IMG/VR virus record: IMGVR_UViG_3300023174_000096
Location: 32,001-96,000 of that record
DNA: 64,000 bases
Strand: one strand, 5' to 3'
From: a virus
A program made the position numbers and the translations under genes. This document shows positions 17,793-52,585 of this stretch, one piece after another. The notes under the pieces were generated by a model. That model was not told where the DNA came from and did no database searches. It saw only the letters and a list, made by a program, of their open reading frames with translations. Position 1 is the stretch's first letter; each line of letters opens with the position of its first letter.

Positions 17793-18512
17793 TCAGTGCC
17801 AGACGGAGAACTCGTACTTGTAGTTGATCTTGTTGGCCTTGAGCCAGTCGTCGAAGTCGTCCCAAGAGATGCCCTTCAGCGCGTCCGGGCTGGCCGTGAG
17901 CATCTGGTAGAACTTCCGAGCCGCCGTGGCGGACGACGACTTGATGATGGTGTAGTGCGGGTCCGACTGCTCAAAATCGCTGTTGGGCGAGTAGGACTTG
18001 AACTCCAGCCACTCGGCCTTCACCGAGAAGTTCTTGCCGTACACCGTGATGGGCTCGACGTTCTCGGGCACCACCGAGAGGTAGTTCACGAGGTCGTCGT
18101 ACCACTTCACGCCAGAGAGGTCTCGCATCGGGTCGTACCCCGGCGTGGCGTGGGCTCGCACGTCGGCAAGCACCTTCTCGCTGGTCATCGCGCCGAAGAT
18201 CTTGTCCTTGATCGTGTCGAACGAGTCCATCGCGGAAATCTTGCCGTAGTGGCGGATGAGGTTGATGGGCATCCACGCATCGAACTTCGTGGAGAAGTAG
18301 GGGTTCCGCAACTCGGACACGCGGAGCTTGCGCTTCCCCTTGGCCGGGAGCTCCTCCAGCTTGAACTCGTAGCGGTCCCACGTCAGACGCCACCCGTCAC
18401 CGACGAGGACACCTTCCATGGCTCCCGCCGTCTTGAGGATGGGCAGGAGGTGAGGGCGAAGGGTGGGTTGTTGATGGGCCAGACGGATCAGCTTGGAACG
18501 GAGTGTTGACAT
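17793..18512 (-). CDS. Leader-bearing hypothetical protein (putative internal head protein)
   Basis: Begins [29 protein letters not shown]|G. Confidence 0.75.
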
Positions 18513-18555
18513 GGGCATTCCTCTCACATCTCGCAGCTATAAAGAGACCAACGAC

Positions 18556-18804
18556 GTGTGGCATGTCTACGTCCTCACCAGCACCGTCCGGGCTGTCACC
18601 TACGTCGGCTGCACCAACGACGTGGGGCGCAGGGTGCGCCAGCACAACGGAGAACTCTCTGGGGGCGCGCGGTTCACCCAACGATGGCGACCGTGGGTGC
18701 TTGGGGTGGTGTACGGGCCGTTCGACGGGCGGGGTGATGCCCAGCGGGCCGAGAGGCTGGTGAAGCGCCTACGAGGCCCCGCGCGCCTACGATGGCGGGC
18801 GTAA
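18556..18804 (+). CDS. GIY-YIG nuclease (SLX1-like)
   Basis: VYVL...[23 protein letters not shown]...RPW; start codon uncertain. Confidence 0.85.
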
Positions 18805-18826
18805 CTACCCGTGGAAAGGAGCACCC

Positions 18827-19324
18827 ATGATGGGCGCTTTCAACGAGGTAGACGACATGTTCCGTGGAGTTCAGTACAACAAGTTCACGAGTGGGCAGAT
18901 CCGCGAGGCGATGAACCGCAAGGTCGAGGCGGTGCGAGCGAAGATCGAGGAGCGCCGGGGCCGCATCGACAAGATCACCCGCGAGAACGAGATCACCCCC
19001 GAGGCCCTGTCCGACCTCATCGTGCAGTACTCGCAGGACCAGCGCCGGGGCGGAGGGGCCAAGATGTCCTACTCGATCCCGAACAGCAACACTTCTTCTG
19101 GCAACCGGACCAAGGAGACGGTGGTGCCCGCTGGGGTGATCGCCAACCTCGTGACCGAGAAGGAGCTCGTCACCTCCGAGACGGCAGAGGTGAAGCGCCT
19201 CGACCTCATCCTCCGCAACCTCAAGGACGACCAGCCCTTCGTGGACGAGAAGACGGGGGAGCTCCGTTCGCGCGCCGTGATCCACACGCTGGACGACGCC
19301 GAGATCGAGTATCTCGGCTTCTAG
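18827..19324 (+). CDS. Hypothetical coiled-coil protein (165 aa)
   Basis: AGGAG RBS; genome-typical codon use. Confidence 0.75.
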   Translation: MMGAFNEVDDMFRGVQYNKFTSGQIREAMNRKVEAVRAKIEERRGRIDKITRENEITPEALSDLIVQYSQDQRRGGGAKMSYSIPNSNTSSGNRTKETVVPAGVIANLVTEKELVTSETAEVKRLDLILRNLKDDQPFVDEKTGELRSRAVIHTLDDAEIEYLGF

Positions 19325-19365
19325 CCTGTCAGTATCCTCGGCCTTCCAACGTCCAGAGGGGCGTA

Positions 19366-20556
19366 ATGAAGACCATGACCGCCGCCCTCCCCAATCCCGT
19401 GGTTCACTACGAGATGATCCGCAAAGACCCGCGCAACCCGCTGCGGGTGTTCCCCGAAGACATCAAGTCGAAGATCCTGCACGACCCCTTCAACAAGCAG
19501 GGGGACAACCCCCTGCCCGCGCAGACGGTCAGCGCCTACAGCACCACCTACAACATGATGCGGTCTACCGTCGCTTACGAGCGCGGAGGGCAGCAAGTGG
19601 TGGTGCTGGGGCCACGGATGCAGGAGGCGTTCGCCAACACCTCGCTCTCCGAGGTGAGTGCGGAGCACATCCGTTTCCCCTTCCCCTGCTTCTACCTCGC
19701 CACCCCGCAGTCCAAGCTCAAGGCGTGGGGCGGAAGTGACACCCTGTGGCACCGGGTCGAAGGTGCCTACGTCATGGAAGACCCCGCCGAGCCGGGGGTG
19801 ATGAGCGTCCTCATCTGGGGCGCGGCGAACGAGCGGTCGCAGTTTCCCACGGACGACGCGACGTTCTGGTTCTCCATGCGTCTGGGCCACGGCGGGACGG
19901 TGGACCTCGACGGCGACCTTGAGAAGCGCCTCGACTTGGCCGAGCTTCGCGAAGGCACCCTGCGGAACATCGAACTGGAGTCCGCCGTCACCCGCATGGA
20001 CCTCGACGCGCGGGTGAACGGGGTGCTGGACAACCGGGGCGCGAACATCAGTGACCGTCTCGCGAACATCCCTCAATCCGAGGAGCTCGCGCGGGAGGTC
20101 AAGGCCATAGTCAAGGCGTTCCTGCGGGTGGTGATCAACACCCTGCTGTACATCAACAGCGCGTCGTGTGAGACCAAGAGCGCCGACAACGATGGGAAGC
20201 GCCGCGAGCTAGAGACTGCGCTGGGGCGCAAGAAGCACAAGAACGGCAAGGACGCCAAGAAGCTCGCCCGCGACCTCGACGCCCTCCCCAAGTACCGGGT
20301 GACGTGGATCGGCCCGACCATCGAAACGAGCGCGGGCGGCGACACAGACCTCACGGGCACCCGCACCGTGAAGGGGCACATTCGCCGGGGCCACTGGCAT
20401 ACCTACCGGGTGGGGCCGCGAAAGACCGAGGCTGGCGAGAGGATCGACCCTGCGATGCGAAAGGCGTCGCTGAAGTGGGTCGCCCCGGTGTGGGTCGGCG
20501 GCGGGGTGCCCGAGGACAAGCCCCGCGTCTACGGGGTGCGCGAGCCCGTCACTTGA
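19366..20556 (+). CDS. Hypothetical phage protein with C-terminal HxRRGHW motif
   Basis: GHIRRGHWHTY...KWVAPVWVG; true start at ATG 19366, directly within GGGCGTAATG. Confidence 0.75.
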   Translation: MKTMTAALPNPVVHYEMIRKDPRNPLRVFPEDIKSKILHDPFNKQGDNPLPAQTVSAYSTTYNMMRSTVAYERGGQQVVVLGPRMQEAFANTSLSEVSAEHIRFPFPCFYLATPQSKLKAWGGSDTLWHRVEGAYVMEDPAEPGVMSVLIWGAANERSQFPTDDATFWFSMRLGHGGTVDLDGDLEKRLDLAELREGTLRNIELESAVTRMDLDARVNGVLDNRGANISDRLANIPQSEELAREVKAIVKAFLRVVINTLLYINSASCETKSADNDGKRRELETALGRKKHKNGKDAKKLARDLDALPKYRVTWIGPTIETSAGGDTDLTGTRTVKGHIRRGHWHTYRVGPRKTEAGERIDPAMRKASLKWVAPVWVGGGVPEDKPRVYGVREPVT

Positions 20557-21205
20557 TCGCGACGTAGGGGTTCTCCATGAGGTAGTAGTTCATCGGCAAC
20601 TGATAGAGGTTGCCGCCGAAGTCCAGAACAAAGTTCTGGCCCTTCACTTCCCGCACGGTCACCACGTCACCGGGGTTCAGCGTGAAACCGCTACGGTATG
20701 AGACGGGCTTCAGCATCGTCAGCAGCATCCCGGGCTTCAGCGGCTTGGCGTGTTGGACGCCCGCTTCCAGCATGACGAAGTACCGGGGGAAGTAGCTGCG
20801 GATGCTCTTCTCCAGTTGGTCGTGGCTGTCCGAAAGCCCCAGAGCGCGAGCCCACTCCGGGCGTTCGTAGAGGGGGATGCTGATCGCCACGTCCTCCTCG
20901 TACCAGTAGTAGCCGTTGGAGAACTCGGCCATCTTGGTAGCCGCAGCCGTGAGCATCTTCTGGGCTACGCCCTTCGCCACGGCCAGACCACCGTGGCCAG
21001 CCGTCCCGTACAGGCGAACTCCACGAGCCGCTTCCTTCCCGTACTGGGCAGGCCCCCAAGGGGTCCAAGGGGCAGAGCGGTCACCGTCGGGCCAACTCAA
21101 GGGGCCAGCGGCGACCTTCCCGTTGTCCAGCAGCGGGAGGAGGTGTGGGCGAAGGGCGGGCGTCTCATGTGCGAGACGAATCAGCTTGGTGCGAAGGGTG
21201 GTCAC
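20549..21205 (-). CDS. Leader-bearing protein with DUF7007-like domain and SH3-like tail
   Basis: Leader MTTLRTKLIRLAHETPALRPHLLPLL..KVA|A; TPWG..Q...TAGHGG...WYEED; AGGAG RBS. Confidence 0.75.
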   Translation of the reverse strand: MTTLRTKLIRLAHETPALRPHLLPLLDNGKVAAGPLSWPDGDRSAPWTPWGPAQYGKEAARGVRLYGTAGHGGLAVAKGVAQKMLTAAATKMAEFSNGYYWYEEDVAISIPLYERPEWARALGLSDSHDQLEKSIRSYFPRYFVMLEAGVQHAKPLKPGMLLTMLKPVSYRSGFTLNPGDVVTVREVKGQNFVLDFGGNLYQLPMNYYLMENPYVAIK

Positions 21206-21248
21206 GGTGAGGTCTCCTGCTTCTTGCTTTTGATAGACCCGTTAGCGA

Positions 21249-24776: not shown

Positions 24777-24778
24777 GG

Positions 24779-27700
24779 TCAGTTCCCTGCGGAGAGGAGG
24801 AGGTTCTTGGTGCGATAGACAGCCACCACCGAGGTCGGGACACCCATAGGGTCGGCCACGATGATCTTGTTGTCCGCGTCGAGGATCGCGAAACGCGAGA
24901 ACACCACGAGGACGAGCTCGCTGGGGCGAAACAGCAAGCTGGGGACTGCGGGGTTGACCCGCGCCAGCATGGTGGTGAAGGTCTTGTGCCGCACGGCCCC
25001 GGAGAGCGGTTGGGTCATCGCCGTGGGCTTGTACCCGAGGTGGTTGACGTAGTCGTAGAAGGCACGGAACTCCGCGTCGATGGCCGTCCCCCTGCCTGCC
25101 ACGGCGTTCCCGAGGGTCATGAGGTTCGACCCGTCCATCGGGACCATCGAGTGCAGGGTGAGCGTGCCCGTCGCAGCGTTGAAGTCACTCACGGACACCG
25201 TGGCCGTCGCCGCGAAGTACCACTCCTGCGGGAACCCAATGCCCACGTTGGGGGTGGGGATGGGGTCGAGCGGCGCGGCGTAGGGGAAGGCGAGTTCTGC
25301 ACTGCCCGCACTGGTCTGACCCGTCCAGATTTGGTTGGACACGGACAGGGGTTCCAGCACCAAGCCCTCCGGGAGGAGCGTCGTGGGCACCCCGCCCGCT
25401 TGGACGCCACACGTCTGGGGCGCGGTCGTCTGGTAGTACACGTCGAGGCGGTACCCCGTGCCCGCGTCGGGGATCGGGTCTTGCGGTGTGTAGACCACCA
25501 CCACGGGGACTTGTTGACCCGCTGCGGGGTTGATGGTGACCTTCCGCTCCGAGCTCCCGAGAGATGCGGCCAGCGTCGGGAGACCGCCCACCGTGAGGCC
25601 CGTGGTGGTCTGGATGCGCCGAGGCGGATACACTAGGGTTTGACTGCGGGTGACGACGGTGTCGGTCACCAACTGGGACTTCTGCTCCAGCAGCACCTCA
25701 CGGAACGGCACCCGGAGCTTGGGCTGTGGCACCCACGTCGCGTCCATCTCCGTCGGCCTTTGTGCCGCGTCGTACTGCACAATCGCCCCGCCGTCATACG
25801 GGGCGTAACCCGTGCCCGTGTCGGGGGTGAGCGCAGCACGGGGCGTGCGAGTGAGCCCCGCGCCCGTGGGGTAGGTGATCTCAAGCTCGATGAACAGTCG
25901 CCTCCGCGAACCGTTGCCGCCGAGGACCGTGTCCACGAGCTTTGTCCCCGACCCTACCACGTTGATCACCTGTGGGTTGGCGTCGAGGGTCATGGTGACG
26001 ATGTCCGTCCCGATCCCCACGATGTTCTTGAACTGGATCGTCTGGTCTACCGGGACGGTGCTGTGACCGTCGTCGTGGTAGCTCACCAGCACGTCGGTCA
26101 CGCGCGTCCCCAAGGGCCACGTCCCGGCCACCGTGTTTACCGCCGGGGCGGCGGTCCAGTTCTGGAGGGACGAGGTACGGAGCGCGCCAAAGTCGAGAGT
26201 GACAGTGTCCCCCTCTGTCCAGCGGTTGACCGCTGCGTTCGTCACCGCGAAGCCCGGGGGGTACGGCCCCGCGTTGGGGAGAACTTCAAAGATCACGCGC
26301 TCGACCACGGGCTGCGAGCCAAACCGTCTCGCGATGTGGTCGAACGTGCGGATGCGGTCGCCAAACACGTTGGCCGAGGGGTCGGTTGAGCGGGCGATCT
26401 CGTCGCACACCATCGGGGTGGTGGACTGCCCGCCCGACCCGCTCCCAATGATCCCCATGTCCGAGGCGTCCACCTGCCAAGTGAGGTTGGTGGAGTCGAG
26501 GAGGGATTGGGTCTGGACCTTGAGCTCCGAGGCGTAGTCGTACCCCGGCGGGGTGACGTGCCGACGAAGGTCGAGGATGTCCACCGCACTGATGAGGTCG
26601 TGGAACAGACCGTCCGGGCGATCTGACTTGGTCGCCACGATGGCCACGGGACCCGCGCTGTCGAGGTGCGTGTTGTTGAAACCAAGGTGCGTCTGGGAGA
26701 TGCCCCCGTTGGCGTTCCCTGCGGGGTTGAATCCACCCGTGCCCGAAGCGTCGTTGCGGCGGAACGCGAAGCACACGGGGATCGCGTACACGAACCCGTC
26801 CGCCGTGCCCAGCGCCGTGGCCGACGCAGAACTGCCATCACCCGCGAGGTACAGACCCCCGTCCACGAACCCGTAGGCCGTCGCGTCCGAGTTGAGGTTG
26901 ATGGTGGTGTTGTCAGCAGGGACGAAGGGGTAGCCCGCGACGGGAGCGCCTGTAGCGCCCTGTGCGAGGACGCTGATGTTGCTGAACCCATCGGGCTGCG
27001 TCTTGGGGTTCACCCCGAGCGGCACGTCACCGTAGACACGGATGCGGTACTGCACCTGCACCCGTTGGGTGCTCTCCACGTTCAACGCCGGGTCTACCAA
27101 GTTGTCCGGGAGGTCCACGCCCGAGGGAGAGCTCACGTTGCCGTGTCGGTAGATCGTGTCCTGCGTGGGCTTGTTCGGGCGATTGGCACCCCCCGTGAGG
27201 TTCGGCCCCGAGAGGACGATGGAGCCCGCCACTGCTTCCACCCTCGCGAGGGTGACACCGTTGCCCGCTGCGCCACCAGCACCCGCTGTCACTTGGACGA
27301 TGCTGGAACTGTGGGCGTTCGCCACGGCGAAGTTCGGGTACAGCGCAGTGGCATTGATTGCCGCCGCGAGGTTGATCCCCGTCACGTCCGCGTTCGCGCC
27401 GATCTGGAACTGGTTCGGCCCCGGCACACCCACGACCGCTGTGAAGGTCACGGTGGGGCCAACAATCGCGCCCGTGTTGAGGGTGACGGTGTCCCCCGCA
27501 GAAATCGAGAACGGGGCGTTGGCGATCTGGACATACCCGTAGGCGCGGGGCGACGGTGCCACCTGTGCGCGCCACACCTCCAAGAACACGAAGTCCGTGC
27601 GCTTGATGTCCGGGGGCAGACCCGAGGAAGGGTCTGCCGGGGGGAGCGTGATGAGGTTCTGTCCCGCCGTCGTGGTGTTGGTGTACTCGACCACCACGGG

Positions 27701-31255: not shown

Positions 31256-31561
31256 TCAGACGGGAGGTTTGCCGCGAAAGGCACGGATGCTGGGGGCGTT
31301 GGTTTCCACGACCTCCTTCGACCCGTCTTCCCACTGGATGAGAGACTTGAAGGGCTTCGCGGAGGTCATCTTGAGGATCGTCCCGTAGACCGATCCGGTT
31401 CCCTTGGCGTCCGACTTGACCACAGAATACCCGACCTTCCAAGGTGAGGTGGCACCCTTCCCCGGAATAGCCGCTTCTTTGAGGAGGGGCAGGAGGTGCG
31501 GACGAAGTTCGGGCTGTTGGTGCGCCAGCCGGATGACCTTGGAACGGAGAGTGTTGCTCAT
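31256..31561 (-). CDS. Leader-bearing small protein with SH3/KOW-like barrel
   Basis: [30 protein letters not shown]|A...WKVGYSV...IQWEDG. Confidence 0.75.
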   Translation of the reverse strand: MSNTLRSKVIRLAHQQPELRPHLLPLLKEAAIPGKGATSPWKVGYSVVKSDAKGTGSVYGTILKMTSAKPFKSLIQWEDGSKEVVETNAPSIRAFRGKPPV

Positions 31562-37279: not shown

Positions 37280-40200
37280 CTATCGTTGTCGTAAGTGAAC
37301 GTCACATCACCGAGGACGAGATACTCCATCGAGTTGGGGTCGATGTCTTTGTCCCCCAAATCCGTCGCGGTGATGTAGGTACACCAGTAGGTGTGGTTCG
37401 ACGGCGCGTCCCCCACGGGGAGGGACACCAGCACTCGATTCCTTACGGAGCCAGTGCCCGTCCCGTAACCGGGAATCACCTGCCCGTCCGCCCCGATGAT
37501 GTAGGCTTGGTTGGGCCGCATCCCGAGGTTCTGGGGCGCGGTCACTTGCAGTGTGAGCTCCGCGTCGTCTTGGAAGACCCCACGGAACTCATTGGGAGGC
37601 CCGCCACCCGTGAGCGTCGGCGCGTCGAGTTCTTGGAGAATCAGCCACACGGCGTACTGACCGTTGGACCATGCGTTCACTCGGAACGAGTCCCCGAAGG
37701 TCGCCGTGGACAGGTCATTGCGGACGATCTGGTAGCCCGCCTGACGGACCATCTTGGTGAGCGGGACGACGACGTAAGAGACGCCCGCCGTCCCGTCGAT
37801 CTCCGCGATCACGTCACTCCGTCTCATCGGGTCGCCCAGCTTGAGCGTCCCGATGAGGTACTGGAGGTTGTTGCGGATCGCGATGTCCACGTTGGTGCGG
37901 TCGAAGCCCCGCTTGAGGATCACCGTGGCGGTGATGTCCACGGGGATCTGGACGGCTTGCTTCGCGAGCACATCCGACGTGGCGTGGGCCATGTCATCGA
38001 GATCCTGCTGGAGCACCGAGGTCACGAGGTTGGTCTGGTACGCCACCACAAAGTTCTCGTAGTAGCTGTACGAGATGGTCACCGTGTCACCATCCGCGAT
38101 GGCGCTCCCCTCCGTGCGTCGGATGCCCGCTGCGACGGTGCTGGACCCCTCGATGATGGTGTAGTCGGGCGATCCGCTGGGGTCGTAGGGGCCTTTGTAG
38201 GTGACCGTCCCTGATTGGTTCTTGACCACGATGGAAAGGGTCTCCGCGCCGAGGTTGTACAAGAACTCGGTGTAGAAACCCGTGACGACGTGGGGCTCGT
38301 CCACCACGGGGATGAGGTTGCCCGAGGGGGACACCACCGTGGGGTCAGCGGACTGATTGATCTGGAGGTAATCCCCCGCTCTGGTCGAGTACCCGAGGCC
38401 CAAGGGGCTGTTCGGGCGCACGAGCGTGTAGAGGGAGATGTCCACCGGGCCGATCACCTCGCCCGTCACGTTCAGAATCCCCGACACGGGCTGGCGCGTG
38501 AAGACGTGGCGATTCCCGAGACGGAACCGGAAGTCCCCCAGCACGATGTCGGTGAGGGTGACCGGAGGCTGCGGGATGGTGATGTCAAGCTGGATGGTGT
38601 TGAAGTTGAGGTAGGTGACATTCGTGAGGTCGAACGTCTCTCCCGTGGTTACATTCTTCAGCCCGAGTCCGTAGGTGGGGTAGTCGAGCATCTGGGCGAG
38701 CGGGTTGTCGGGCGTGACCTCTTCGCTCACCACCCGGAAGACGTAGTTGAGCGGGCTCCCGATCACCACGAACTGCACGTCGTTGCGGCGCTCGTAGGTG
38801 AAGGCAAAAATGTCGTTGACGGTCACGGTGCGGACACCCCGCGCCCACACGTCCACCTTGCCTCCCAAGTGACGCTTGAGGGTGGTGTCGTAGTCCCGCT
38901 GCATCAGCGGGTCGCCCGCCCGGACCACGACGTTCTGAATCGTCCCCGGCACCCCTGCCGCGACTTGGGCCATACCCTGCGTCGTCCCGGTGTCCACGGA
39001 CGCGAGGGCCGTGCGTGCCCTCGCCGCCAACTGGGCGTTGGTTTCCTCGTTGGCTCCCCCGAAGGTGGCAGCGTCGTTGGTGACGGCCATCCCGTACACG
39101 TTGGAGCCCGTCAGTTGGCGCGGTCCGACGTTGGTCACCGTCCCCACGGTCAACGCCCTCACGGGCACCGTGACCGAGTACTCCCGCGTCGAGGGGTTGT
39201 AGTAGCTGGCGAGCAGGGCCACGTCCATGACCGCCGAGCGAGACGTGCGGAACTGCACACCCCCGCCGAGGATCACGGTCCCAAGCGGGATGGTGATCGT
39301 GCGCGTCGGGGGAGACAACGTGAAGAACCGCACTTCTCCCACGGCGGGAGTGCCCGCGCGTCGGATGACCCCGAAGTTCGCCGCGATCTTGTCGAAGCTC
39401 CCGTCGATGACGCTCTGCACGTCGTCCACGTTGGAGTAGAAGAAGGCCGCTGCGAGGGCCGTCTTGTACGCCGACGAGGCGGGAGGGTTGGATACCCCCG
39501 AGCCCGTGGGGTCGTCCACCAAGAGCAGGGTGTCGAACGAGCTCGCGCGGTACACATAGTCGAGCAGCAACCGAAGGCGCTCTGCCTCCGTGGTGAACGG
39601 GTCCAAGAAGATGTCCCGCACCACCGAGCCGGGTTGGACCGCGATATCCGGGTTCTGTCGGTAGATGGTCGCGATGGCGCTCTCAAGCATCTGCTGGCGC
39701 GTGACCGCCGTGAGCCCGTTGATCTGCTGGCGCACCTGCGCTGGAGCGCCCGCCACCTCCGAGGAGAAGTAGGACTCGTACTCGACCTTGATGACCGGGT
39801 CGTAGTAGATCGCCGTCGCGACGTAGTAGAGGAGATCCGTCGAGGGGGTGCTCGCGAACACGCCGCTGAACACCGTGGCGGGGTTGGACAGGGCGTTCGC
39901 GGTGCGGACGTGCGTGAAGCTGAAGTAGTTGATCGTCGTGACCGACGACACGGACACGTTGGTGCGGATGGTGGTGATGTCACTGGGGAGCTCCACCCGC
40001 GAGTCCACGTCCGTGGACAGCACCACCTCGCTGCTGTTCTCTTGGTCGATCTTGGCGCGGTAGTAGAGGGGCGTCGCCGTCTGCGCCACTGCGTCCGCCG
40101 TGAGGGCGTACAACTCTGTCGAGTTCTGCACGGGGGTGCCCGTGGTCACCCGGTTCACGTTGATGATCCGGTAGCCGTCCGCGCCGCCCCCCTGCGTCGT

Positions 40201-40647
40201 GGCCGCGTAGAAGTTGTACCCGACGATGCGGCTATCAGTGAGCCCCTCGACCGTCACCTTCACCGAGCCGTCGAGGCGCTCGATGGTCACGCCCGTGGGA
40301 GGGAGGAACACGTCGGCCTCCTCCGGGGGGAGGAGACGGACCACCACCGTCGCCGGGACGCTGCGCCCGCCCGCGAGGTTGACCGCCCGGACTTGGATCG
40401 TGTTGTCGCCCGAGAAGAGTTCCAGCCCGGTGGGGTACGCGCTGGGGTTCGGGACGGTGAACCCCGTGCCCACGAAGGCCACGAGCGTCGGGTCAGCCGT
40501 GAAGGGTTGCCCGAAGAGAGACACCTCCACGTCCACGGTGTCGTCGGGGAGGGTGCCCGTGAAGAACCGGGTGGTCTGCGTGGTCGAGAACGTGGAGGTC
40601 TCCCGCAACACGTTGTCGGGACCAAGGAACTGCACAGAGGTCGCCAT
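37276..40647 (-). CDS. Baseplate J/gp6-like wedge protein (1123 aa)
   Basis: PGSVVRD, DKIAANFGVIR...AVGEVRF, IPLGT, GGANEETNAQLAAR, GKVDVW. Confidence 0.85.
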   Translation of the reverse strand: MATSVQFLGPDNVLRETSTFSTTQTTRFFTGTLPDDTVDVEVSLFGQPFTADPTLVAFVGTGFTVPNPSAYPTGLELFSGDNTIQVRAVNLAGGRSVPATVVVRLLPPEEADVFLPPTGVTIERLDGSVKVTVEGLTDSRIVGYNFYAATTQGGGADGYRIINVNRVTTGTPVQNSTELYALTADAVAQTATPLYYRAKIDQENSSEVVLSTDVDSRVELPSDITTIRTNVSVSSVTTINYFSFTHVRTANALSNPATVFSGVFASTPSTDLLYYVATAIYYDPVIKVEYESYFSSEVAGAPAQVRQQINGLTAVTRQQMLESAIATIYRQNPDIAVQPGSVVRDIFLDPFTTEAERLRLLLDYVYRASSFDTLLLVDDPTGSGVSNPPASSAYKTALAAAFFYSNVDDVQSVIDGSFDKIAANFGVIRRAGTPAVGEVRFFTLSPPTRTITIPLGTVILGGGVQFRTSRSAVMDVALLASYYNPSTREYSVTVPVRALTVGTVTNVGPRQLTGSNVYGMAVTNDAATFGGANEETNAQLAARARTALASVDTGTTQGMAQVAAGVPGTIQNVVVRAGDPLMQRDYDTTLKRHLGGKVDVWARGVRTVTVNDIFAFTYERRNDVQFVVIGSPLNYVFRVVSEEVTPDNPLAQMLDYPTYGLGLKNVTTGETFDLTNVTYLNFNTIQLDITIPQPPVTLTDIVLGDFRFRLGNRHVFTRQPVSGILNVTGEVIGPVDISLYTLVRPNSPLGLGYSTRAGDYLQINQSADPTVVSPSGNLIPVVDEPHVVTGFYTEFLYNLGAETLSIVVKNQSGTVTYKGPYDPSGSPDYTIIEGSSTVAAGIRRTEGSAIADGDTVTISYSYYENFVVAYQTNLVTSVLQQDLDDMAHATSDVLAKQAVQIPVDITATVILKRGFDRTNVDIAIRNNLQYLIGTLKLGDPMRRSDVIAEIDGTAGVSYVVVPLTKMVRQAGYQIVRNDLSTATFGDSFRVNAWSNGQYAVWLILQELDAPTLTGGGPPNEFRGVFQDDAELTLQVTAPQNLGMRPNQAYIIGADGQVIPGYGTGTGSVRNRVLVSLPVGDAPSNHTYWCTYITATDLGDKDIDPNSMEYLVLGDVTFTYDNDR

Positions 40648-41747
40648 CAGTAGTTCCCCAAGGACAGGCGGTTGGTTCCCGGCAGCGCGAACGTACCGGG
40701 GGCCGAGTACACGATGGAAATGGTCACGGGTTCAGACGAGTAGTTCCGCACGTCTACCTCGATGAGGAAGGTCGTGGGGTCGTTGGGGGACGGGGCCACG
40801 GCGATGTTGTCCACGGAGAAGAGCCTCTCCTTGGCCGTGACCCGCTGGTACTTGGACTGCGCGTTCTGGAGGTTCTGGAGGTTCGTGAGGGCTTGGCTCA
40901 CCGACTGACGGATGCCAATCGCCGTGCCCCCCAGCACCTTGCTCCCGATACGCGAGACGAGGTCAGACCCATACCAAGTGTGGTAGATGTTCGACCCGAG
41001 CTCCGTCAGGATCATCTTGAGGCACATCTGGTAGAGCAGGTTCTCGTCCTGCACCACCAGCGCCTCGCCCTGTGGGTCGAAGCGGTAGTCGTTCTCGACC
41101 TCCGTCGCCCTGCAACGGAGGCACAGGTACGGGGCCACAGGATACGTCACCGTGAAGAACGCTTCCTGCTTGACGACGGAGTCGAACCCGATGTAGTAAC
41201 CGAGAGAATCCACGGCGTCTTCGGGGTTGACCGCCGTGCGAGAGTAGAGCCTCCACGGGGGGATCACCGTTTTGCCACGGTCGCCGCTCTGCTGGTCGAA
41301 GCCCAAAGGCTCCAGCGCCGAGCCCGTGAGTTGAATCCTCGACGTGGGGCCGGGAGTCGCTGTGTCCGTCAGGGTGATGTACCCGTTGGGGGAGGACACC
41401 ACCACGAGCCCCCTCACTGCTGCGGTGAGGGTGGCAGACACCTGCGCCGCCGACAGGTAGCCCGACGAGAAGTTCACCGTCGCCGCGCCCGCCCCCGTGG
41501 TGAGCACCAGCGTGCGGGTAGCCGTCGTGATCTTGTAGGGCTCGCGGCGGTAGGACCGCATCGTCGCCGGGGTCACCAGCCCCGTGAAGGGGGAGACAAT
41601 GGCGTCGTCGTTGACGCGGACTTGCACCAGCGTCGGTCCAGAGATGGGCTTGGCCGTGTACAGCGTGCGTCGGTCGGTGCCGAGAGAGACCCTCTCCTCA
41701 CCGATGACGTGGCTACAAGTGAAGGCAAGCTGTACGTCGCGCGACAT
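40647..41747 (-). CDS. Baseplate wedge subunit with gp25-like C-terminal domain
   Basis: LYQMCLKMILTELGSNIYHTWYGSDL; directly upstream of the baseplate J-like gene. Confidence 0.75.
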   Translation of the reverse strand: MSRDVQLAFTCSHVIGEERVSLGTDRRTLYTAKPISGPTLVQVRVNDDAIVSPFTGLVTPATMRSYRREPYKITTATRTLVLTTGAGAATVNFSSGYLSAAQVSATLTAAVRGLVVVSSPNGYITLTDTATPGPTSRIQLTGSALEPLGFDQQSGDRGKTVIPPWRLYSRTAVNPEDAVDSLGYYIGFDSVVKQEAFFTVTYPVAPYLCLRCRATEVENDYRFDPQGEALVVQDENLLYQMCLKMILTELGSNIYHTWYGSDLVSRIGSKVLGGTAIGIRQSVSQALTNLQNLQNAQSKYQRVTAKERLFSVDNIAVAPSPNDPTTFLIEVDVRNYSSEPVTISIVYSAPGTFALPGTNRLSLGNY

Positions 41748-44536: not shown

Positions 44537-44539
44537 TCG

Positions 44540-44914
44540 TTAGCGGGCGAGTTTCGTCAGAGCCTCAAAGGCTTCTTGCATCGGACGGCTCTGCGAGCGA
44601 CGGCAGTCCATCAGGCTGTGTTGGACCTTGTCAAGGATCTTGACCAAGAAGTCATGACCCTGCCCGGGGTTCTGTTCGGCCCCGTCGAGGACGTGGGCGA
44701 ACGCAAGGCGCGCGTTTTCTTCAGCCATCCGCAGGTAGGCGATGGCGTCGTTCATGGCTTCCTTCGCCGCCCCGTAATCCGACTTGCTCGAATCGACCGA
44801 CTCGAAGACCATCGGTCCCGCCGTCTTGGTGAGGAGGGGCATGAGGTGCGAACGGAGCTCCGGGTTGGTGTGAGCCAGCCGGATGATCTTGGAACGGAGT
44901 GCTTGATCGCTCAT
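44540..44914 (-). CDS. Leader-bearing helical protein
   Basis: MSDQALRSKIIRLAHTNPELRSHLMPLLTKTA|G. Confidence 0.75.
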   Translation of the reverse strand: MSDQALRSKIIRLAHTNPELRSHLMPLLTKTAGPMVFESVDSSKSDYGAAKEAMNDAIAYLRMAEENARLAFAHVLDGAEQNPGQGHDFLVKILDKVQHSLMDCRRSQSRPMQEAFEALTKLAR

Positions 44915-44955
44915 TGGGATGGAACCTTTTCTTACGGGGTGTGGTGAACAGTCGG

Positions 44956-47900
44956 TCAAACGAGGCCCGACCAGCCCTTGAGGGAGGCGAGGATCTTCTT
45001 GGCGGCGGACGCCCCCTCCGTGACCTTCACGGGCTTGGTGGGGGACTCTTCGTTCGTGCGGTCGATCACCGTGAGGTAGACACTGGTGTCACCGAGGGTG
45101 CATTGGGACAGCAAGAACTGCTGGTACTCGGGAGCCCCCTGCGCGTTGTCCTTGGGCTGGGGGTAGACGGTGAGGTACACGCTGAAGGCCATCCCGTCCA
45201 CGGTGCGGTCGCCCACCTTGCAGGGGACGAAGTGCGGGTGGACGGTGATCGACAGGGAGTTGGGGAAGCGCATCCCCGCCCGCACCTCGTCCACCGCCGC
45301 GCTGGAGATCAGTCGGAGATCCTTGGGCATGATCTTCTGCGAGAGGGCCGAGAGAACCTCCCGCGCCTGTGCCCGGAACGCCTCAAACCGCTCGTAGAGC
45401 ATCTGGGCATCCCGAAGCGCCGCGCTGATGGTGGCGTCACTTGGGTGCTCGGTGAGGTAGGTGCGGCAGTGGGCGATCACCCGCTCGGCGTGTCGCATCC
45501 CATGCTCAGACTTGGCGAACACCTCCGTCTGCGAGTGCAGGGTGAGCGCCGCGATGCGCCCCACCACGGGCATGGGCACCGTCTCCGCGTAGGTGTCCAG
45601 CACCGCTTGGATGTCCGACGCCAGTGCCTCCAGCGTCTCCAGTTCGCCCGTGATCGTGGCCACGGGGTCGATGGCATCGAGGTGCTGGGACACGACACGG
45701 CGAACAGATGCACTTCTCACGGGTACCTCACAGACAGTCGGAGGGGGGTCTTGGCGACCCTTCCAGAACACGGTGACGATCTCGATGCGCCCTGCGTCGG
45801 TGGCGAACACCACTTTCAGCCGGGTCTTGGGGTCCACCCACTCAATCTTCTCTTGGGAGAGCAGGGCTTCGTACTGGTCGGGGTTCACCTTCTGGAGCCC
45901 CTGCGCGTAGACGATGAACGAGTTCAGCGCAGCCTCCACGTCCTTGACCGTCACGGATCGGTAGTCCATGCGGAACTGGGCGTGGGGGAGGATGGTGAAG
46001 CTCTTGAAGCCCGACCCGCTCTCAGTGGTCAGCGGGTAGACCTTCCGGGCGTCCGGGTTGGACAGATCACCCGTCTCGGCGTCGTCGGTGAGCTTCTCCC
46101 GCAGAGCGGGGTTGCGGATCGCGCGGTTGATCCGGTCCACCACCTTGCACGGGCCACCGTTGAGCCCCAGCGGTGGTGACAGGTCGGCGGTCTTCTTGGC
46201 CTTCTCGTCGGCGGCTTCCATCTGACCCTTCACCTTCTCGGCCCACGCTCGTCCGGGGTCACCACCCCAGATCAGCCACGACACGTTGCCCTTGTCGTTC
46301 CACGGCTCACCCTTGTTCTCCGGGGCGACGCCCTTGTTCTTCTCGTGGCGCGAGAAGAACGCGGTCATCTGCTTGATGGTGTCGGGCGAGATGTTGTCCC
46401 GGTTCTTGAGGTTCACCGCCCGCTGCACGCCGCTCCCGATGCCCTGCTCGGCAGCTTCCGCCGGGGTGAGCCCGCCCTTGTTCGACGGGCTGGCTTTCTC
46501 ACGGTACTCCAAGCCCTTTTCCGCTGCGTCGGCCACCGACTGCGGGGGCTTGAAGTCGATGTGCTCGTACTTCTTGGGCACGTCGGCGGTTCGGGTGCGG
46601 CGGTGGTTCATGGTCACGTCTTGATGATGAAGTTCACGGCGAGCCACGGCTGCATATTGGCGTGCGCGCTGCCACCGCCCGTCGAACCCGTGGTGAACGT
46701 GTGCGTGTAGACGAGCGAACCGTTGGGCGACACGGACGGGGGATGCGCGGAGCCTCTCTCGCACGCGGTCGTTGAGTTTCACGTCTTGGTCGGCCAAGTT
46801 CGGGTCCGACAGGAGGAACTCGCGAGCAATGGGGACAAGGCTCGCGCGAGCCCTGCCCGTCAACGAGAACTCTTGAATGAGCGCCATGTTGTCCACTGCG
46901 GGTTTCCGCAGGGCTTCAAGGTACTTCCTTGCCTCGTCACTGGACCATCCGCTGGTGTTCTGCTTGAACTGCTCGCGCTCGTTCGGCGTCAAAAAGTCCA
47001 GCACCCTCCCCGCGATCCCGATGTCGGCAAGCTCCAACAAGAGCTCGACCGTATGGTTGCCGTTCGCCAGTTGCTTGGTGAGGTATGCCGCGAACGGGGG
47101 GTTCTCTTGCACCATCTCGACGATCACGTCGAGTAGGCCAAGGGAACGCATCACTTTGAGGCCCATCGTCGCCTTGGGTGACTTGAGGATGTCCCCGACG
47201 AGGATGTTCCCGACAGCTTCCCACGGCATATTCTTGAGCTTCGCGGCGTTGCGCCTCACAGAGGCCATAGCATCGGGCGAGATGGTCAAGTCATACCGCA
47301 GCAAGAACTTCAAGACCCGGAGCATCCGAGTCGGGTCGTCGCTGAAGGTCTTGTCGGGGTCCACGGGCGTCGAGATGAGCTTCTGCTCAAGGTGCTGACG
47401 ACCCAGCCCCGTGAGGTCAATCACTTCGGCCTTGTCAGGGCCGTTGGCGAGGTCATGCATCCGCCACAGCAGGGTGTTGAACGTGAACTCTCGGCGGAAC
47501 ACATCCTCTTCAATGGTCGCGGGGGACACGTCCGTGGGCTTGTATCCCTTGCCTTTGCCCCCCGCACCCTCGTAGGACTCCTTGCGGGCGTTGGCGATCT
47601 CGATCACCTCGCCCTTCAGGTTGATCCCGTCGAGCAGCCACTCCCCCTTCACGGTGAGGATCACCACCCCGTACTGGTTGGTCGCGAGGTTCGTCGGGAC
47701 AGGGATGGCGTCCACCACCTTTCGGGCGAACCACTCTGAATCCCGGCCCGCCGACACGGAGTCCACCACCACGTCGATGTCCTTGATGGGCACACCGAGG
47801 ATGAAGTTCCGCACGGCACCGCCGACGACGTAGACGTGTCGGGCGACGCCAGCGTCACGGGCCACCTCAGACAGAAAACTCATCAACGCGATGGACTTGG

Positions 47901-48825
47901 CGTGTGCCGAGGATGCCATCAGGTACCGGGAAGCGAGCTTCACCGGGTCCACGGACTTCCTGACCTGTCCGGTCTTGGGTGACAGTTCCACGAGCTCTTT
48001 GCCTCCGTTGCGGTAGCTAAACGCCCTCACCGTGATCTTGGGCGAGTAGTCCTTGGGCAGACGGTCCTCCAGCCCCTCGTAGTCCATCTTGCCGGGGATG
48101 ACGTAGAAATCCAACTCCCGGTCGGTGAGGTTCATCACCATCTGGGAGGTGGTCGCCATCGAGTCCGTGTCTCGCACCGGGTCGTTGTGGGTGCGCGGCC
48201 CTTCGGAGCGGTTCCGCATGAGGTCCGGGCCAAGGTCCGTGGGCGTCTTGCTCTGACGGAGGATCTGGGTGGACTTCTCCTTGCGGGCGGCGGACGAGAG
48301 ATACCCCTCGCCGTCCGTGTAGCCCGTCCCGCCCGTGTCGCGCCCGTGGTTGGTGCGGACATGGATCTCACTGCCCTCCAAGGGCTTGGTGACGCAGTCC
48401 CCGTTGATGAGCTCGACCGAGAACGCCCGGTTCGGGTCACTCACGAACGAGTGCCCTTCCAGCCCCCCAAGGTGGGAGCACAGGGAGTCAATGGCGTCCT
48501 GCACGGTGCGGCACGAGAGGGCCTTGAGGATGCGGGCACCGTCGAGCGCCTTGCCCTTCTTGCCCTTCTTGTCCTCGACAGCCGTGGCGGTGCCTTCGGC
48601 CTCATCGAGGCCCACGGCGAGCGCCGCGTTGGCGATCCCGATCCCGTGCTCGTTCAACCCCTCGCACCACCCCGTGACGTTGTCGCGCATATACGCGACC
48701 TCGACGCCGTCGAGGAGCTCGCGGACGAGGGTGACTCGTGGGGTGTACTTGCGGTCACGGTTCTTGAGGAGAGCCCTCTTCCCGTCCCACACACCAGCAG
48801 CAATGACGCAAGCGAGTCTGTCCAT
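44956..48825 (-). CDS. Polyprotein: Ntn hydrolase (C45-like) + CCA-adding/poly(A) polymerase-family nucleotidyltransferase + WGG domain + BECR/DUF4258-like RNase + helical domain
   Basis: C6..KNRDR..EGLNEHG..RTNH; VGGAVRN..DID, RREFTFN, DDPTRMLR; FFSRH..WLIWGGD; HAQFRM..R.V...IVTVF. Confidence 0.85.
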   Translation of the reverse strand: MDRLACVIAAGVWDGKRALLKNRDRKYTPRVTLVRELLDGVEVAYMRDNVTGWCEGLNEHGIGIANAALAVGLDEAEGTATAVEDKKGKKGKALDGARILKALSCRTVQDAIDSLCSHLGGLEGHSFVSDPNRAFSVELINGDCVTKPLEGSEIHVRTNHGRDTGGTGYTDGEGYLSSAARKEKSTQILRQSKTPTDLGPDLMRNRSEGPRTHNDPVRDTDSMATTSQMVMNLTDRELDFYVIPGKMDYEGLEDRLPKDYSPKITVRAFSYRNGGKELVELSPKTGQVRKSVDPVKLASRYLMASSAHAKSIALMSFLSEVARDAGVARHVYVVGGAVRNFILGVPIKDIDVVVDSVSAGRDSEWFARKVVDAIPVPTNLATNQYGVVILTVKGEWLLDGINLKGEVIEIANARKESYEGAGGKGKGYKPTDVSPATIEEDVFRREFTFNTLLWRMHDLANGPDKAEVIDLTGLGRQHLEQKLISTPVDPDKTFSDDPTRMLRVLKFLLRYDLTISPDAMASVRRNAAKLKNMPWEAVGNILVGDILKSPKATMGLKVMRSLGLLDVIVEMVQENPPFAAYLTKQLANGNHTVELLLELADIGIAGRVLDFLTPNEREQFKQNTSGWSSDEARKYLEALRKPAVDNMALIQEFSLTGRARASLVPIAREFLLSDPNLADQDVKLNDRVRERLRASPVRVAQRFARLHAHVHHGFDGRWQRARQYAAVARRELHHQDVTMNHRRTRTADVPKKYEHIDFKPPQSVADAAEKGLEYREKASPSNKGGLTPAEAAEQGIGSGVQRAVNLKNRDNISPDTIKQMTAFFSRHEKNKGVAPENKGEPWNDKGNVSWLIWGGDPGRAWAEKVKGQMEAADEKAKKTADLSPPLGLNGGPCKVVDRINRAIRNPALREKLTDDAETGDLSNPDARKVYPLTTESGSGFKSFTILPHAQFRMDYRSVTVKDVEAALNSFIVYAQGLQKVNPDQYEALLSQEKIEWVDPKTRLKVVFATDAGRIEIVTVFWKGRQDPPPTVCEVPVRSASVRRVVSQHLDAIDPVATITGELETLEALASDIQAVLDTYAETVPMPVVGRIAALTLHSQTEVFAKSEHGMRHAERVIAHCRTYLTEHPSDATISAALRDAQMLYERFEAFRAQAREVLSALSQKIMPKDLRLISSAAVDEVRAGMRFPNSLSITVHPHFVPCKVGDRTVDGMAFSVYLTVYPQPKDNAQGAPEYQQFLLSQCTLGDTSVYLTVIDRTNEESPTKPVKVTEGASAAKKILASLKGWSGLV

Positions 48826-48880
48826 AGGGGGGTTGGTCCTACGGGCGCAGGGTGATAGAACGGTTAAGGGCGGGGGGTCG

Positions 48881-49360: not shown

Positions 49361-49395
49361 GCGGGGAGTTACGCCCGCATGGAACGGGCGGGGGA

Positions 49396-49629: not shown

Positions 49630-49648
49630 GGTCGGGGGTCTCCTTGGA

Positions 49649-50749: not shown

Positions 50750-50781
50750 GAAGTTCTCCTACGGTTGTTGAGGGATAGGCG

Positions 50782-50850
50782 ACCTAACGCCCGGTCGAAA
50801 GCTCACGCTTGGCCGGGGCACAACCCCGGACAGGGCCGACCTACCTAGCT
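50782..50850 (-). ncRNA. Candidate small structured RNA (three-way junction)
   Basis: Has its own CTATC-N-TAG motif; GGTCG/CGACC closing stem, CCGGGG/CCCCGG hairpin, AGC-GTGA-GCT GNRA hairpin; no ORF. Confidence 0.3.
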
Positions 50851-50878
50851 AGAGACGCCGCGATAGGCGGGAAACCTC

Positions 50879-52558
50879 CTACTCCTCGTCCTTGAACGTG
50901 GGGGTGAACACGGGCTTCTTGCCCTTCGGTGCCTTCTCCTGCACCCTCATCTTCTCTCGGGCCTTCTCGGCGCGCTCGCCCTTAGCCATGTCGTGGGCCT
51001 TGGGTCGGGCCATGCACTTGAAGGGGGTCTTCCCGCCCCGGGTGAGGTCTTTCCAGTTCGGGTCGTCCGTGAGGTCGCCGCACGGCCCGATGATGTCACC
51101 GGGCTCGTAGGTCTTCTTGGTCCCGTCCTCGCGGGTGATCGTGCGCTTCACGGGCGAGATCGCCACCCAATCTCCCCACTGGGCCTCACCGGGTGATTTG
51201 CCCTTGCCCTGACCGTGGCCGCTGAACCACTCGTCTAGGCCCCCGTGACCTACGTCTTTTTTGGCCTTTCCCTTGGCGGACAGGTAGCGGGACGCAACAC
51301 GGGCGGCGCTTGCGAAGCGCCCACGGTCCTTCTTGGCGAGGAACGCCTTGAACCGCTCGATCTGATCGCGGGTCATGTCCCGGCCCAGAACGAAGTGCGC
51401 GAACACCTCCGCGAAATCCTCCTCCGTGGCGGTCCCCCCGTACTCCGACACGGCGGCGACTTCTTTGTAGAAGCTGTCGAACCGAGCGCGGTCGCCCGCG
51501 TCCATGAACTTGAAGTAGTAGCGGTGCCCTAGCTCATGGATGAGGAGCTCGACCAAGAAGGGCTTGGGCAACAAGAACACCACGACGTGGTCGGGGCCGA
51601 TGACGTAGTGCGCCCCCACTCCGAAGTGCTTGCCCAGCGGGTTCTCACCACCGCACTTCGGGCACCCGACGAAGATCGGGCCATACCAGAGGTCGCCAAA
51701 GCCCTTCTGGTCGAGCAGCGCCTTGGCCTTCTGGAAGTAGGGGATGTAGTCAGACAGACCCCGGGGGTCACCGGGGTCGGGGCGGGTGATGAGGTTACGG
51801 TCGGGCTCGCCGTCGTACACCAGCTTGACCTTCCCGATGTCGAACTCCAGCAGGATCTCGTCGGGATCGTAGGACGAGCCCCCCGAGTATTTGCTGAGAA
51901 ATGTGGTGATCGCCCGCAGGAGTTTGCCCGAAAGGATGTCCTCGACCTTGGCGAGTGCCTCCCGGGCGTAGTCCTCGTACCCCTTCAGCGCAGCGGCGAA
52001 CGGGTCGTCAGGGTTCACCCGCTGGTAGAAGCCCAGTATATTCTGCCCGTCCATCGTGTAGGTGTGCGTGCCGGGGGTCATTGCATCCCGGACGTGCTGG
52101 AACTTCCCGAGGTCTTCGTCGAGAAGGTACCTCGCTTCCTTGAGCTCATCACGGACTTTGAGTCGAATCGCCTCAAAGACGCTGGACGGGTCCATTCCAC
52201 GGGGCAGCAAGCCCTTCGTGTAGGCCATGTGCTCCCACAGGCGCTCTAGCTCCCGGTCCCGCAGGGACTTGAAGTGCGCGATGAGGTCGTCGAGTGAGGC
52301 GTACCGTGGCTTGGGCGCAAAGGTCTTCTTGACCCACGCACGGATACCCTTGACCCATGCCGGGTCGATCTTGGTCTCCTCCCCGGCGGACTTCTTCGCC
52401 CGCCAACCGCCGCCCTCGTCCTTGTAGAGCTTGAGGGCGTGCCCGACCGCGTAGGCACTGGGCCACTTGGTGTAGCGTTCCTTCGCCTTCGCCTTGCACT
52501 TCTCCCAGAGCTCGGGATTCGTGGGATCGTTGTCGTCGGCGGCAGTGAAGCGGTCCAT
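50879..52558 (-). CDS. Polyprotein: split DUF5872-like halves flanking a helical domain and a zincin metallopeptidase
   Basis: WPSAYA...YKDEGGGW; LIHELGH...VSEYG...EEDFAEVF; GGLDEWF...WV...CG...KC. Confidence 0.8.
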   Translation of the reverse strand: MDRFTAADDNDPTNPELWEKCKAKAKERYTKWPSAYAVGHALKLYKDEGGGWRAKKSAGEETKIDPAWVKGIRAWVKKTFAPKPRYASLDDLIAHFKSLRDRELERLWEHMAYTKGLLPRGMDPSSVFEAIRLKVRDELKEARYLLDEDLGKFQHVRDAMTPGTHTYTMDGQNILGFYQRVNPDDPFAAALKGYEDYAREALAKVEDILSGKLLRAITTFLSKYSGGSSYDPDEILLEFDIGKVKLVYDGEPDRNLITRPDPGDPRGLSDYIPYFQKAKALLDQKGFGDLWYGPIFVGCPKCGGENPLGKHFGVGAHYVIGPDHVVVFLLPKPFLVELLIHELGHRYYFKFMDAGDRARFDSFYKEVAAVSEYGGTATEEDFAEVFAHFVLGRDMTRDQIERFKAFLAKKDRGRFASAARVASRYLSAKGKAKKDVGHGGLDEWFSGHGQGKGKSPGEAQWGDWVAISPVKRTITREDGTKKTYEPGDIIGPCGDLTDDPNWKDLTRGGKTPFKCMARPKAHDMAKGERAEKAREKMRVQEKAPKGKKPVFTPTFKDEE

Positions 52559-52585
52559 CACCGCGCGCGGGCGATAGAACGGTTA

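Follow-up and report, generated by a model that had tools for sequence, protein, structure and literature searches.

A portable peptide tag on swappable effector-type proteins of uncultured huge phages, with a possible role in loading them into the virion

A 64,000-nucleotide stretch (the window) comprising bases 32001 to 96000 of the 105,516-bp IMG/VR record IMGVR_UViG_3300023174_000096 was analyzed, and four genes on its minus strand, starting at positions 18512, 21205, 31561, and 44914, were found to open with the same short peptide, LRSKxIRLAHxxPxLRPHLLPLL. Translation and a six-frame motif scan placed the peptide at these four starts and at no other site in the window, in agreement with the initial annotation, which had described an N-terminal leader on four otherwise unrelated genes. 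The peptide very probably serves as a portable tag, for addressing or docking, on a set of exchangeable effector-type proteins. The data lean somewhat toward a role in loading this cargo into the virion, most likely into the head, while trimming of the tag by a head protease at flanking K-x-A sites was judged an even question. The sequence has a GC content of 65%, and the CheckV completeness of 24% for the contig corresponds to a phage genome of roughly 440 kb.

The tag is 23 to 27 residues long, with the core consensus L-R-[ST]-K-x-I-R-L-A-H-x-x-P-x-L-R-[PS]-H-L-[LM]-P-[LI]-L and 13 of 33 aligned columns invariant. A scan of the whole contig revealed a fifth copy outside the window, at the C-terminus of a 189-amino-acid (aa) protein encoded at genome positions 19475 to 20044, identified as a 2H-SAK phosphoesterase (E = 8e-17). 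The residues following the four window cores were KTAG, DNGKVAA, KEAA, and TKTAG, so the ending K[TVE]A before [GA] described earlier could be read at all four genes (KTAG, KVAA, KEAA, and KTAG). Codons were identical at only 19 to 78% of the identical tag residues, indicating selection on the peptide rather than a DNA repeat. A13, R20, and P17 were kept in 96 to 100% of tag instances while the surrounding sequence was unalignable, and basic residues were conserved at positions 6 (R), 11 (R/K), 20 (R), and 28 (K). No match to the tag was obtained from Pfam, from a profile search of PDB sequences, or from a literal sequence search of the literature.

An AlphaFold2 model of the 101-aa tag protein (gene 31561; 79-row alignment) placed helices at residues 5 to 15 and 17 to 30 with a predicted local distance difference test score (pLDDT) of 75 to 92, followed by a low-confidence linker at residues 31 to 45 (pLDDT <50 at 35 to 43) and strands at residues 46 to 87. 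The tag is thereby predicted to adopt a two-helix fold, and the K-E-A that follows it in this protein falls at the end of helix 2 and the start of the linker. Prediction of a complex of two tag copies (115-row alignment) gave a score of 0.11, with the mark at 0.42, and counts neither for nor against self-association. A bihelical fold with conserved basic positions would also suit a small nucleic acid binder of the helix-extension-helix (HeH) or SAP-like type, with the cargo packaged and ejected while riding on the phage DNA. Multiple copies would raise avidity, and polyvalent proteins often use DNA-binding “header” domains, rare Rho-N/SAP domains included (PMC5512222). Such a binder is nonetheless quite unlikely, as none of about 260 tag proteins matched SAP, Rho_N, or any other HeH model in Pfam, and no PDB sequence was matched. 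The turn of the tag is three residues long with an invariant Pro, unlike the HeH linker, which is longer and contains Gly. Furthermore, the ten conserved hydrophobic positions exceed the need of a two-helix DNA binder and suggest a protein groove instead.

To survey its distribution, a profile of the five tag copies was searched exhaustively against 1.84 billion representative proteins. Matches were obtained to 3,334 cluster representatives at E ≤ 1e-3 and to 405 at E ≤ 1e-10; proteins had one to six copies, with the top matches having two to six. Of 332 instances in the best 150 proteins, 121 were N-terminal, 159 internal, and 52 C-terminal, the C-terminal copies terminating directly after LLPLL. 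The description of the element as an N-terminal leader was therefore too narrow, since copies also stand at C-termini and between domains, often several per protein. In IMG/VR, the tag was found on 71 loci, many on contigs of 120 to 485 kb, and five large related records (167 to 485 kb) had 6 to 15 matches each. It was conserved across phages of 54 to 65% GC. One of 401 Acidobacteriota genomes gave a match, on a 1.3-kb contig of a Terriglobia metagenome-assembled genome, which is probably a mis-binned phage fragment. The initial annotation had predicted that no replication gene would have the leader and had named cellular carriers as evidence against its proposal; no replication protein was found among the tag carriers, and, this one small contig aside, the tag was absent from the other 400 sampled genomes of that phylum. 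Because the Pfam, PDB, and literature searches were empty and only one of the 401 Acidobacteriota genomes matched, the tag is an undescribed module that is virus-restricted within what was searched. The distribution is best explained by a tag specific to one clade of uncultured huge phages.

Most of the tag cargo was unannotated, and most tag proteins consisted of a single effector domain plus the tag. The cargo families matched were, besides the 2H-SAK protein described above, ART-PolyVal (two), DUF2958 (two), DUF5710 (three), RNA_ligase, RelA_SpoT, pentapeptide repeats, and DUF7007. In PMC5512222, 2H, RelA/SpoT, ART, and zincin domains are named as components of polyvalent proteins, for which packaging in the capsid and delivery along with the DNA are predicted. 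These family matches support a resemblance of the cargo to effectors, comprising tRNA/RNA repair enzymes, ADP-ribosyltransferases, and similar proteins. Within the window, tag gene 1 gave no Pfam or PHROG match, and an ESM Atlas search with its cargo gave no usable match; its ortholog in locus L005 is 98% identical. The cargo of tag gene 3 was modeled by AlphaFold2 as a small SH3/Tudor-like beta-barrel, with weak matches to Tudor/SH3 folds.

The exchange of cargo was evident from two close relatives, IMGVR_UViG_3300032331_001209 and the 266-kb record G001, whose structural genes are 78 to 99% identical to those of the window. At the sites in IMGVR_UViG_3300032331_001209 syntenic with genes 21205, 31561, and 44914, the tag was 66 to 81% identical, the cargo was non-homologous, and homology stopped just after LLPLL(KxA). 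The portability claimed in the initial annotation was thus borne out at three syntenic sites, where the cargo had been replaced and the tag kept. The G001 ortholog of tag gene 4 is 80% identical, while in locus L066 a different cargo lies behind the same tag. In relatives, tag genes are frequently found in tandem arrays, so that internal copies may be explicable as gene fusions. Homology breakpoints at the tag end might also be produced by a dispersed DNA repeat, a recombination hotspot, or chance, with no function at the protein level. This last reading is effectively refuted by the diverged synonymous sites, by the spread over 3,334 clusters and phages of such different GC content, and by the reading frame and exact termini, which are always kept.

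Two upstream motif classes were recognized. The motif [CGT]CTAT[CAT] lies 10 to 75 nt upstream of 14 genes (1.9 expected), among them tag genes 21205 and 31561, the fifth tag gene, the gp25-like baseplate gene, and genes 48825 and 52558, which encode two large proteins of 1289 and 559 aa described below. Gene 18512 has the variant TTTATA at 18543, and gene 44914 starts 42 nt past the stop of the 1289-aa gene. Hence, the earlier statement that five of six genes lie behind CTAT/TTAT was confirmed as four CTAT sites plus the variant, with the sixth gene following a polyprotein gene. In G001, the CTAT class gave 42 upstream matches against 8.8 expected. The other motif, GCGTAA[CG], lies 12 to 15 nt upstream of 11 genes (1.1 expected), including the DNA polymerase gene and none of the tag genes, and was also enriched in G001. 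It marks another class of promoter or translation signal, separate from CTAT. Judging from the upstream motif held in common with baseplate genes, the CTAT class would be late.

The structural context of the tag genes, which intermingle with the baseplate block, also bears on their destination. Loading onto or into the tail, in the manner of extracellular contractile injection systems with their N-terminal packing signals or of swappable tail-fiber proteins with their conserved anchor peptides, would agree with the interleaving of the four window genes with Baseplate_J, gp25-like, and tail-fiber-like genes and with the same linkage in 8 related loci. A conserved N-terminus followed by a swapped C-terminus is also the classic pattern of receptor-binding proteins. 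This destination was considered very unlikely, as the cargo is small and comprises nucleic acid enzymes and ADP-ribosyltransferases rather than fiber-like proteins, N-terminal anchoring does not account for the C-terminal and internal copies, and the protease-type motif flanking the tag points to the head. In addition, the phage tail tube is filled by the tape-measure protein.

The flanking motif was examined across the tag family. [KR]xA was found 0 to 2 residues after the tag in 67% of 126 distinct instances, versus 3% by chance, and the next residue was mostly A or G. Internal and C-terminal copies had the consensus K-x-A-S directly before them. Pfam and PHROG scans detected no capsid, portal, terminase, or prohead protease gene on the 105-kb contig, and the Pfam models S77, Gp23, S78, HK97 capsid, S21, and ClpP gave no genome-scan match in five records. 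The capsid and portal genes of relatives were located through PHROGs rather than Pfam, and an HK97-like capsid protein was found in relatives only.

In G001, the head cluster has the order terminase, portal (89174-90862), several genes, a 918-aa open reading frame (ORF), a scaffold-like Glu/Lys-rich protein (100840-102366), a 226-aa protein, and a 293-aa HK97-like capsid protein (103265-104146). The scaffold-like protein was the most [KR]xAS-enriched of about 350 proteins (6 sites versus 0.6 expected; p = 4e-5). In three phages, the scaffold-like protein encoded shortly before the capsid gene had 5 to 6 such sites against 0.6 to 0.7 expected (p = 4e-5 to 8e-4), and four of the sites were conserved in position among the homologs. 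A head-cluster family of about 210 aa (38 sequences) has a near-invariant KKA[S/T] at residues 4 to 7, PKLA[S/A/K] at residues 117 to 120, and K[TS]A-x (x mostly S or A) 5 to 8 residues from the C-terminus. This family (L082:16804-17526) is unannotated, with a conserved N-terminal helical region and an acidic tail, and may be an internal core protein. The capsid protein of the relatives has its only sites of this type, KTA[AS]G and KLAAS, among the first 30 residues. By eye, it is about 95% identical across phages whose other proteins are 40 to 60% identical, which fits the kind of partner that a conserved tag needs.

The initial annotation had called for a prohead protease to be located; a homolog was found in the close relative G001 but none on the contig itself. 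The 918-aa ORF (G001:98071-100827), which directly precedes the scaffold-like gene, shares 42% identity with gp331 of Tunturi_5, annotated as a “head maturation protease,” and also matches a Gordonia phage protein annotated as a capsid maturation protease. Its family assignment is provisional, as the Pfam models S21, S77, S78, and ClpP gave no match. The 918-aa ORF (L094) contains an intein at about aa 191 to 625, with a homing-endonuclease-like region (PI-PkoII and PI-SceI matches), inserted after a conserved SMGC. Tunturi_5 is a cultured Acidobacteria jumbo phage, and its annotated DNA ejection protein and scaffold-like gp332 were K-x-A-enriched too. Between the portal and protease genes of the G001 head cluster, a 1156-aa protein (L082:13334-16804) has both a 2′-5′ RNA ligase/2H domain and a eukaryotic-type topoisomerase IB core. 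Since K-x-A sites are enriched or positionally conserved in the scaffold-like, 210-aa, capsid, and Tunturi_5 proteins, K-x-A followed by a small residue is a credible candidate for a maturation protease site that would link the tag borders to head assembly.

Tag genes themselves occur within head clusters: in G002, one for a 134-aa protein separates the scaffold-like gene from the capsid gene, and in G005, one for a 103-aa protein comes immediately behind the portal gene. This placement also bears on whether the tag instead docks cargo inside the infected cell, to a host hub such as RNA polymerase, the ribosome, or the membrane or to a phage compartment or condensate, with the enzymes acting where they are made. 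Cargo for RNA repair and nucleotide signaling (2H, RNA ligase, CCA-adding enzyme, and RelA/SpoT) would be useful throughout infection, and multiple tag copies suit avidity for a multivalent cellular target. Docking in the cell was nevertheless assessed as unlikely. Besides their presence in the head clusters of G002 and G005, the tag genes have the upstream motif of baseplate genes and not that of the DNA polymerase, and the flank motif is enriched in scaffold-like and head-cluster proteins. Moreover, the cargo families are those tied to packaged polyvalent proteins (PMC5512222).

For loading into the virion, we infer a binding partner, encapsidation, cleavage, and injection as follows. The tag would be a self-contained helix-turn-helix docking element, fused N-terminally, C-terminally, or between the domains of fast-swapping accessory enzymes whose genes would be expressed from a promoter class in common with the baseplate genes. 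It would bind one conserved phage partner, most likely the capsid protein, the scaffold-like core, or the portal, and this binding would bring the enzymes into the capsid. The head maturation protease would then cut K-x-A at the tag borders, with Ser following the upstream cut and Ala or Gly the downstream one, and the freed cargo would be ejected with the DNA. For this complete sequence of docking, encapsidation, cutting, and ejection, the arguments appeared evenly balanced.

Several observations weigh against this sequence of events. In the window, the tag genes lie among baseplate and tail-fiber genes and not among head genes, so the tail may yet be the destination; the cargo could end up in the tail/baseplate or with the packaged DNA rather than at the capsid wall. 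The late timing is read solely from the shared upstream motif. Ser/Thr is found at position 4 also in N-terminal tag copies, where there is nothing to cut off, and K-x-A-S could reflect a helix cap and linker composition. Multi-copy and internal tags would be superfluous for a simple cleavable leader and may be tandem-gene fusions. The sole GenBank phage with the tag is an uncultured 485-kb record (LR745208.1), no cultured phage being among the carriers, and the cultured Tunturi_5 lacks it.

The two large proteins, grouped with the tag genes in the initial annotation, are both polyvalent-type mosaics. Profile matches of the 1289-aa protein were to PolyA_pol (E = 9e-15), phrog_2244 (E = 1e-31), and phrog_2859, with a DUF4258-like match below the cutoff. 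Its N-terminal nucleophile (Ntn) hydrolase-like domain matched AAT at E = 1e-4, which is below the cutoff, as were the matches of two orthologs, and a PDB sequence search with this domain gave no match. In relatives, the protein is split or recombined at about aa 300, 709, 737, and 880. The G001 counterpart is two genes, split at about aa 709, and IMGVR_UViG_3300032331_001209 lacks the nucleotidyltransferase domain, its first gene ending at about aa 300. The 559-aa protein has an inserted zincin-like middle part (aa 60 to 414) with HELGH at aa 341, and the sole Pfam match of this part was a weak one to Peptidase_Mx (E = 0.045). Its G001 ortholog fuses aa 1 to 59 straight to aa 415 to 559, without the HELGH middle.

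Cleavage at the domain junctions of these polyproteins had been proposed from the strings RTAD (aa 745), KTAD (aa 878), and KSAG (aa 56). The strings are present, but [KR]xA[DGAS] was found 7 times against 5.0 expected in one protein and 4 times against 2.6 in the other, and it was rejected as a junction mark at these chance-level counts. [KR]xAS alone was observed 3 times in the 559-aa protein, versus 0.30 expected. The junctions are marked instead by a second motif, RVAxR[YF]L, together with the recombination breakpoints. Likewise, the starts MDRLAC (gene 48825) and MDRFTAA (gene 52558) were present as described, but their interpretation as prohead protease sites was not favored. The Cys after MDRLA is kept in an ortholog that starts MNSRTAC, and in Ntn-hydrolases the N-terminal nucleophile is exposed by self-processing. 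MDRLA would most simply be an Ntn-hydrolase propeptide ahead of the nucleophile, a reading that draws on knowledge of the family and on the subthreshold AAT matches; a cut between MDRFTA and A was without support. A common “MDR” start of the two polyproteins was likewise rejected, as they have only the promoter stretch TAACCGTTCTATC in common.

The motif R[VL]AxR[YF], pointed out in the initial annotation, proved to be real and to represent a second portable motif, with 5 copies in the contig versus 0.4 expected. In 4,175 distinct ORFs of related loci, [RK][VI]AxR[YF][LAIVM] was found 25 times against 0.8 expected, 12 of the 25 at protein termini, and only 2 of these 25 ORFs also had the two-helix tag. 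The motif marks two junctions in the 1289-aa protein (aa 296 and aa 698) and one in the 559-aa protein (aa 420), and stand-alone relatives start or end with it. In a separate observation, scaffold-like proteins (L083:840-2366, L092:9229-10497, and L093:10841-12139) have a conserved KQAS-RQLRAA...CIR[IV]AQSML-GRKAS between two K-x-A-S sites, of which CIRIAQSML loosely resembles RVAxR[YF]L.

More tentatively, a three-part system can be considered, with two portable labels (the tag and RVAxR[YF]L), an Ala-specific maturation protease that would trim the labels at K-x-A, and a quickly exchanged library of anti-defense enzymes, loaded in advance and injected before phage expression. The two labels may mimic a capsid- or protease-binding element of the scaffold-like protein.

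The coordinates of these and other features are given in Table 1. The PIN-PhoH and Ros/MucR pair is located between large structural genes and the tail-fiber-like gene. A conserved 454-aa neighbor of tag gene 1 (16394-17758) gave a folded model with a pLDDT of only 45, which was unusable. At the left end, a 3538-aa ORF on the plus strand occupies window positions 1 to 8397 and starts 2219 nt before the window; it has GCGTAAG upstream and no Pfam match. It shows 40% identity across 3107 aa to a sequence on another huge-phage contig (L051); a 3560-aa ORF was called at a comparable position in G001. Just before the window, at about 25500 to 27700 of the genome, several short ORFs end in an FGE/C-type-lectin-like GFRCA and have near-identical upstream DNA. 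The start of the contig (L003:1-138, outside the window) consists of 23 tandem CCCCTC copies and may be a terminal repeat or an assembly end. A 271,727-bp contig also encodes a protein of this phage.

Table 1. Positions of tag genes, large proteins, motifs, and neighboring genes, in window coordinates
Feature	Position	Strand	Remarks
Tag gene 1 (239 aa)	17793..18512	-	Core 18435-18503; KTAG 18423-18434; cargo fold unknown
Tag gene 2 (218 aa)	20549..21205	-	Core 21128-21196; cargo DUF7007 (Pfam E = 1.2e-15)
Tag gene 3 (101 aa)	31256..31561	-	Core 31481-31549; KEAA 31469-31480
Tag gene 4 (124 aa)	44540..44914	-	Core 44831-44899; TKTAG 44816-44830; cargo unannotated
Polyvalent-type protein, 1289 aa	44956..48825	-	Starts MDRLAC; Ntn-hydrolase-like (Cys6); tRNA nucleotidyltransferase aa 330-686; phrog_2859 aa 745-878; DUF4258-like aa 880-1040; C-terminal part unknown
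Polyvalent-type protein, 559 aa	50879..52558	-	Starts MDRFTAA; DUF5872-like N-terminal part; C-terminal domain
KLASRYL, end of domain 1 of 1289-aa protein	47920..47940	-	Homologous gene in L066 ends just past motif
RVAQRFA, domain 2/3 junction of 1289-aa protein	46714..46734	-	Homologous gene in G001 ends 12 aa beyond
RVASRYL, 559-aa protein	51281-51301	-	
TCTATC upstream of gene 52558	52573..52578	-	
Further CTAT-class motif sites	48859, 31588, 21237, 41771, 28043, 24819, 31224, 43936, 50779		
GCGTAA[CG] sites	12110, 18799, 58765, 62852, and others		
PIN-PhoH fusion, then protein with Ros/MucR zinc-finger region	28064-30501	-	
Tail-fiber-like protein	30546-31211		
Baseplate_J-like gene	37276-40647	-	Pfam Baseplate_J E = 1.8e-17
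gp25-like sheath-initiator gene	40647-41747	-	Basis for baseplate block 37276..41747: Pfam Baseplate_J, phrog_6, phrog_2669
DNA polymerase	56087-58753		

Among known systems, the internal proteins of T4 are a diverse set of defense proteins that share only a capsid targeting sequence (CTS) and are encapsidated into the scaffolding core (PMC3012670). By analogy, the T4 CTS appears to be the closest precedent. In T4 (IPI-III and Alt), as here, a short tag is the sole common feature of diverse, fast-evolving anti-defense proteins, the genes are linked to structural genes and late (the latter judged here from the upstream motif), and a candidate protease site follows the tag. The CTS differs in being about 10 aa long and N-terminal, whereas the present tag has 23 to 27 aa with two predicted helices, takes any position, and is found in up to 6 copies; no sequence similarity was seen between the two. 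The T4 gp21-type (S77) protease cuts after Glu, whereas the flank here is K-x-A, and neither an S77 match in five records nor a gp23 was found.

Short basic helical docking elements are also provided by the C-terminal helix-turn-helix of the P22 scaffolding protein and by the cargo-loading peptides of encapsulins, either of which suffices to carry a fusion partner into an HK97-fold shell. The tag is likewise short, basic, and, by prediction, helical, with no detectable homology to either, and unlike them it occurs on many different cargo proteins within one genome. The herpesvirus assemblin cleaves at an Ala-Ser site, which resembles the candidate K-x-A plus Ser site, although the specificity suggested here comes from motif enrichment only. 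As with HK97-type and assemblin prohead proteases, the protease gene of G001 lies upstream of scaffold-like and capsid genes.

Polyvalent proteins, as described by Iyer, Burroughs, Anand, de Souza, and Aravind in 2017 (PMC5512222), have a matching repertoire of 2H, ART-PolyVal, RelA/SpoT, zincin, and nucleotidyltransferase domains. With the proteins at 44956-48825 and 50879-52558, they also share a multidomain mosaic structure, late-gene linkage, and the reshuffling of domains between relatives. Unlike the polyvalent proteins, most tag proteins carry one effector domain only. Neither the tag nor the RVAxR[YF]L motif was found in that paper by keyword.

Proteins that are packaged beforehand and injected allow a phage to act before its own genes are read, and to our knowledge the rules by which such proteins are loaded have hardly been worked out beyond T4, P1, N4, and phiKZ-like phages. 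The tag provides a sequence-defined label that groups thousands of unannotated huge-phage proteins into one functional class and allows candidate injected effectors to be listed straight from metagenomes. The findings also supply a candidate cleavage motif and point to a homologous protease in the cultured Tunturi_5. If the proposed loading is correct, the tag would serve as a natural and transferable packaging signal by which proteins enter phage heads, possibly portable for loading foreign proteins into capsids. The cargo swaps at fixed sites also show where in these genomes the arms race with host defenses is fought.

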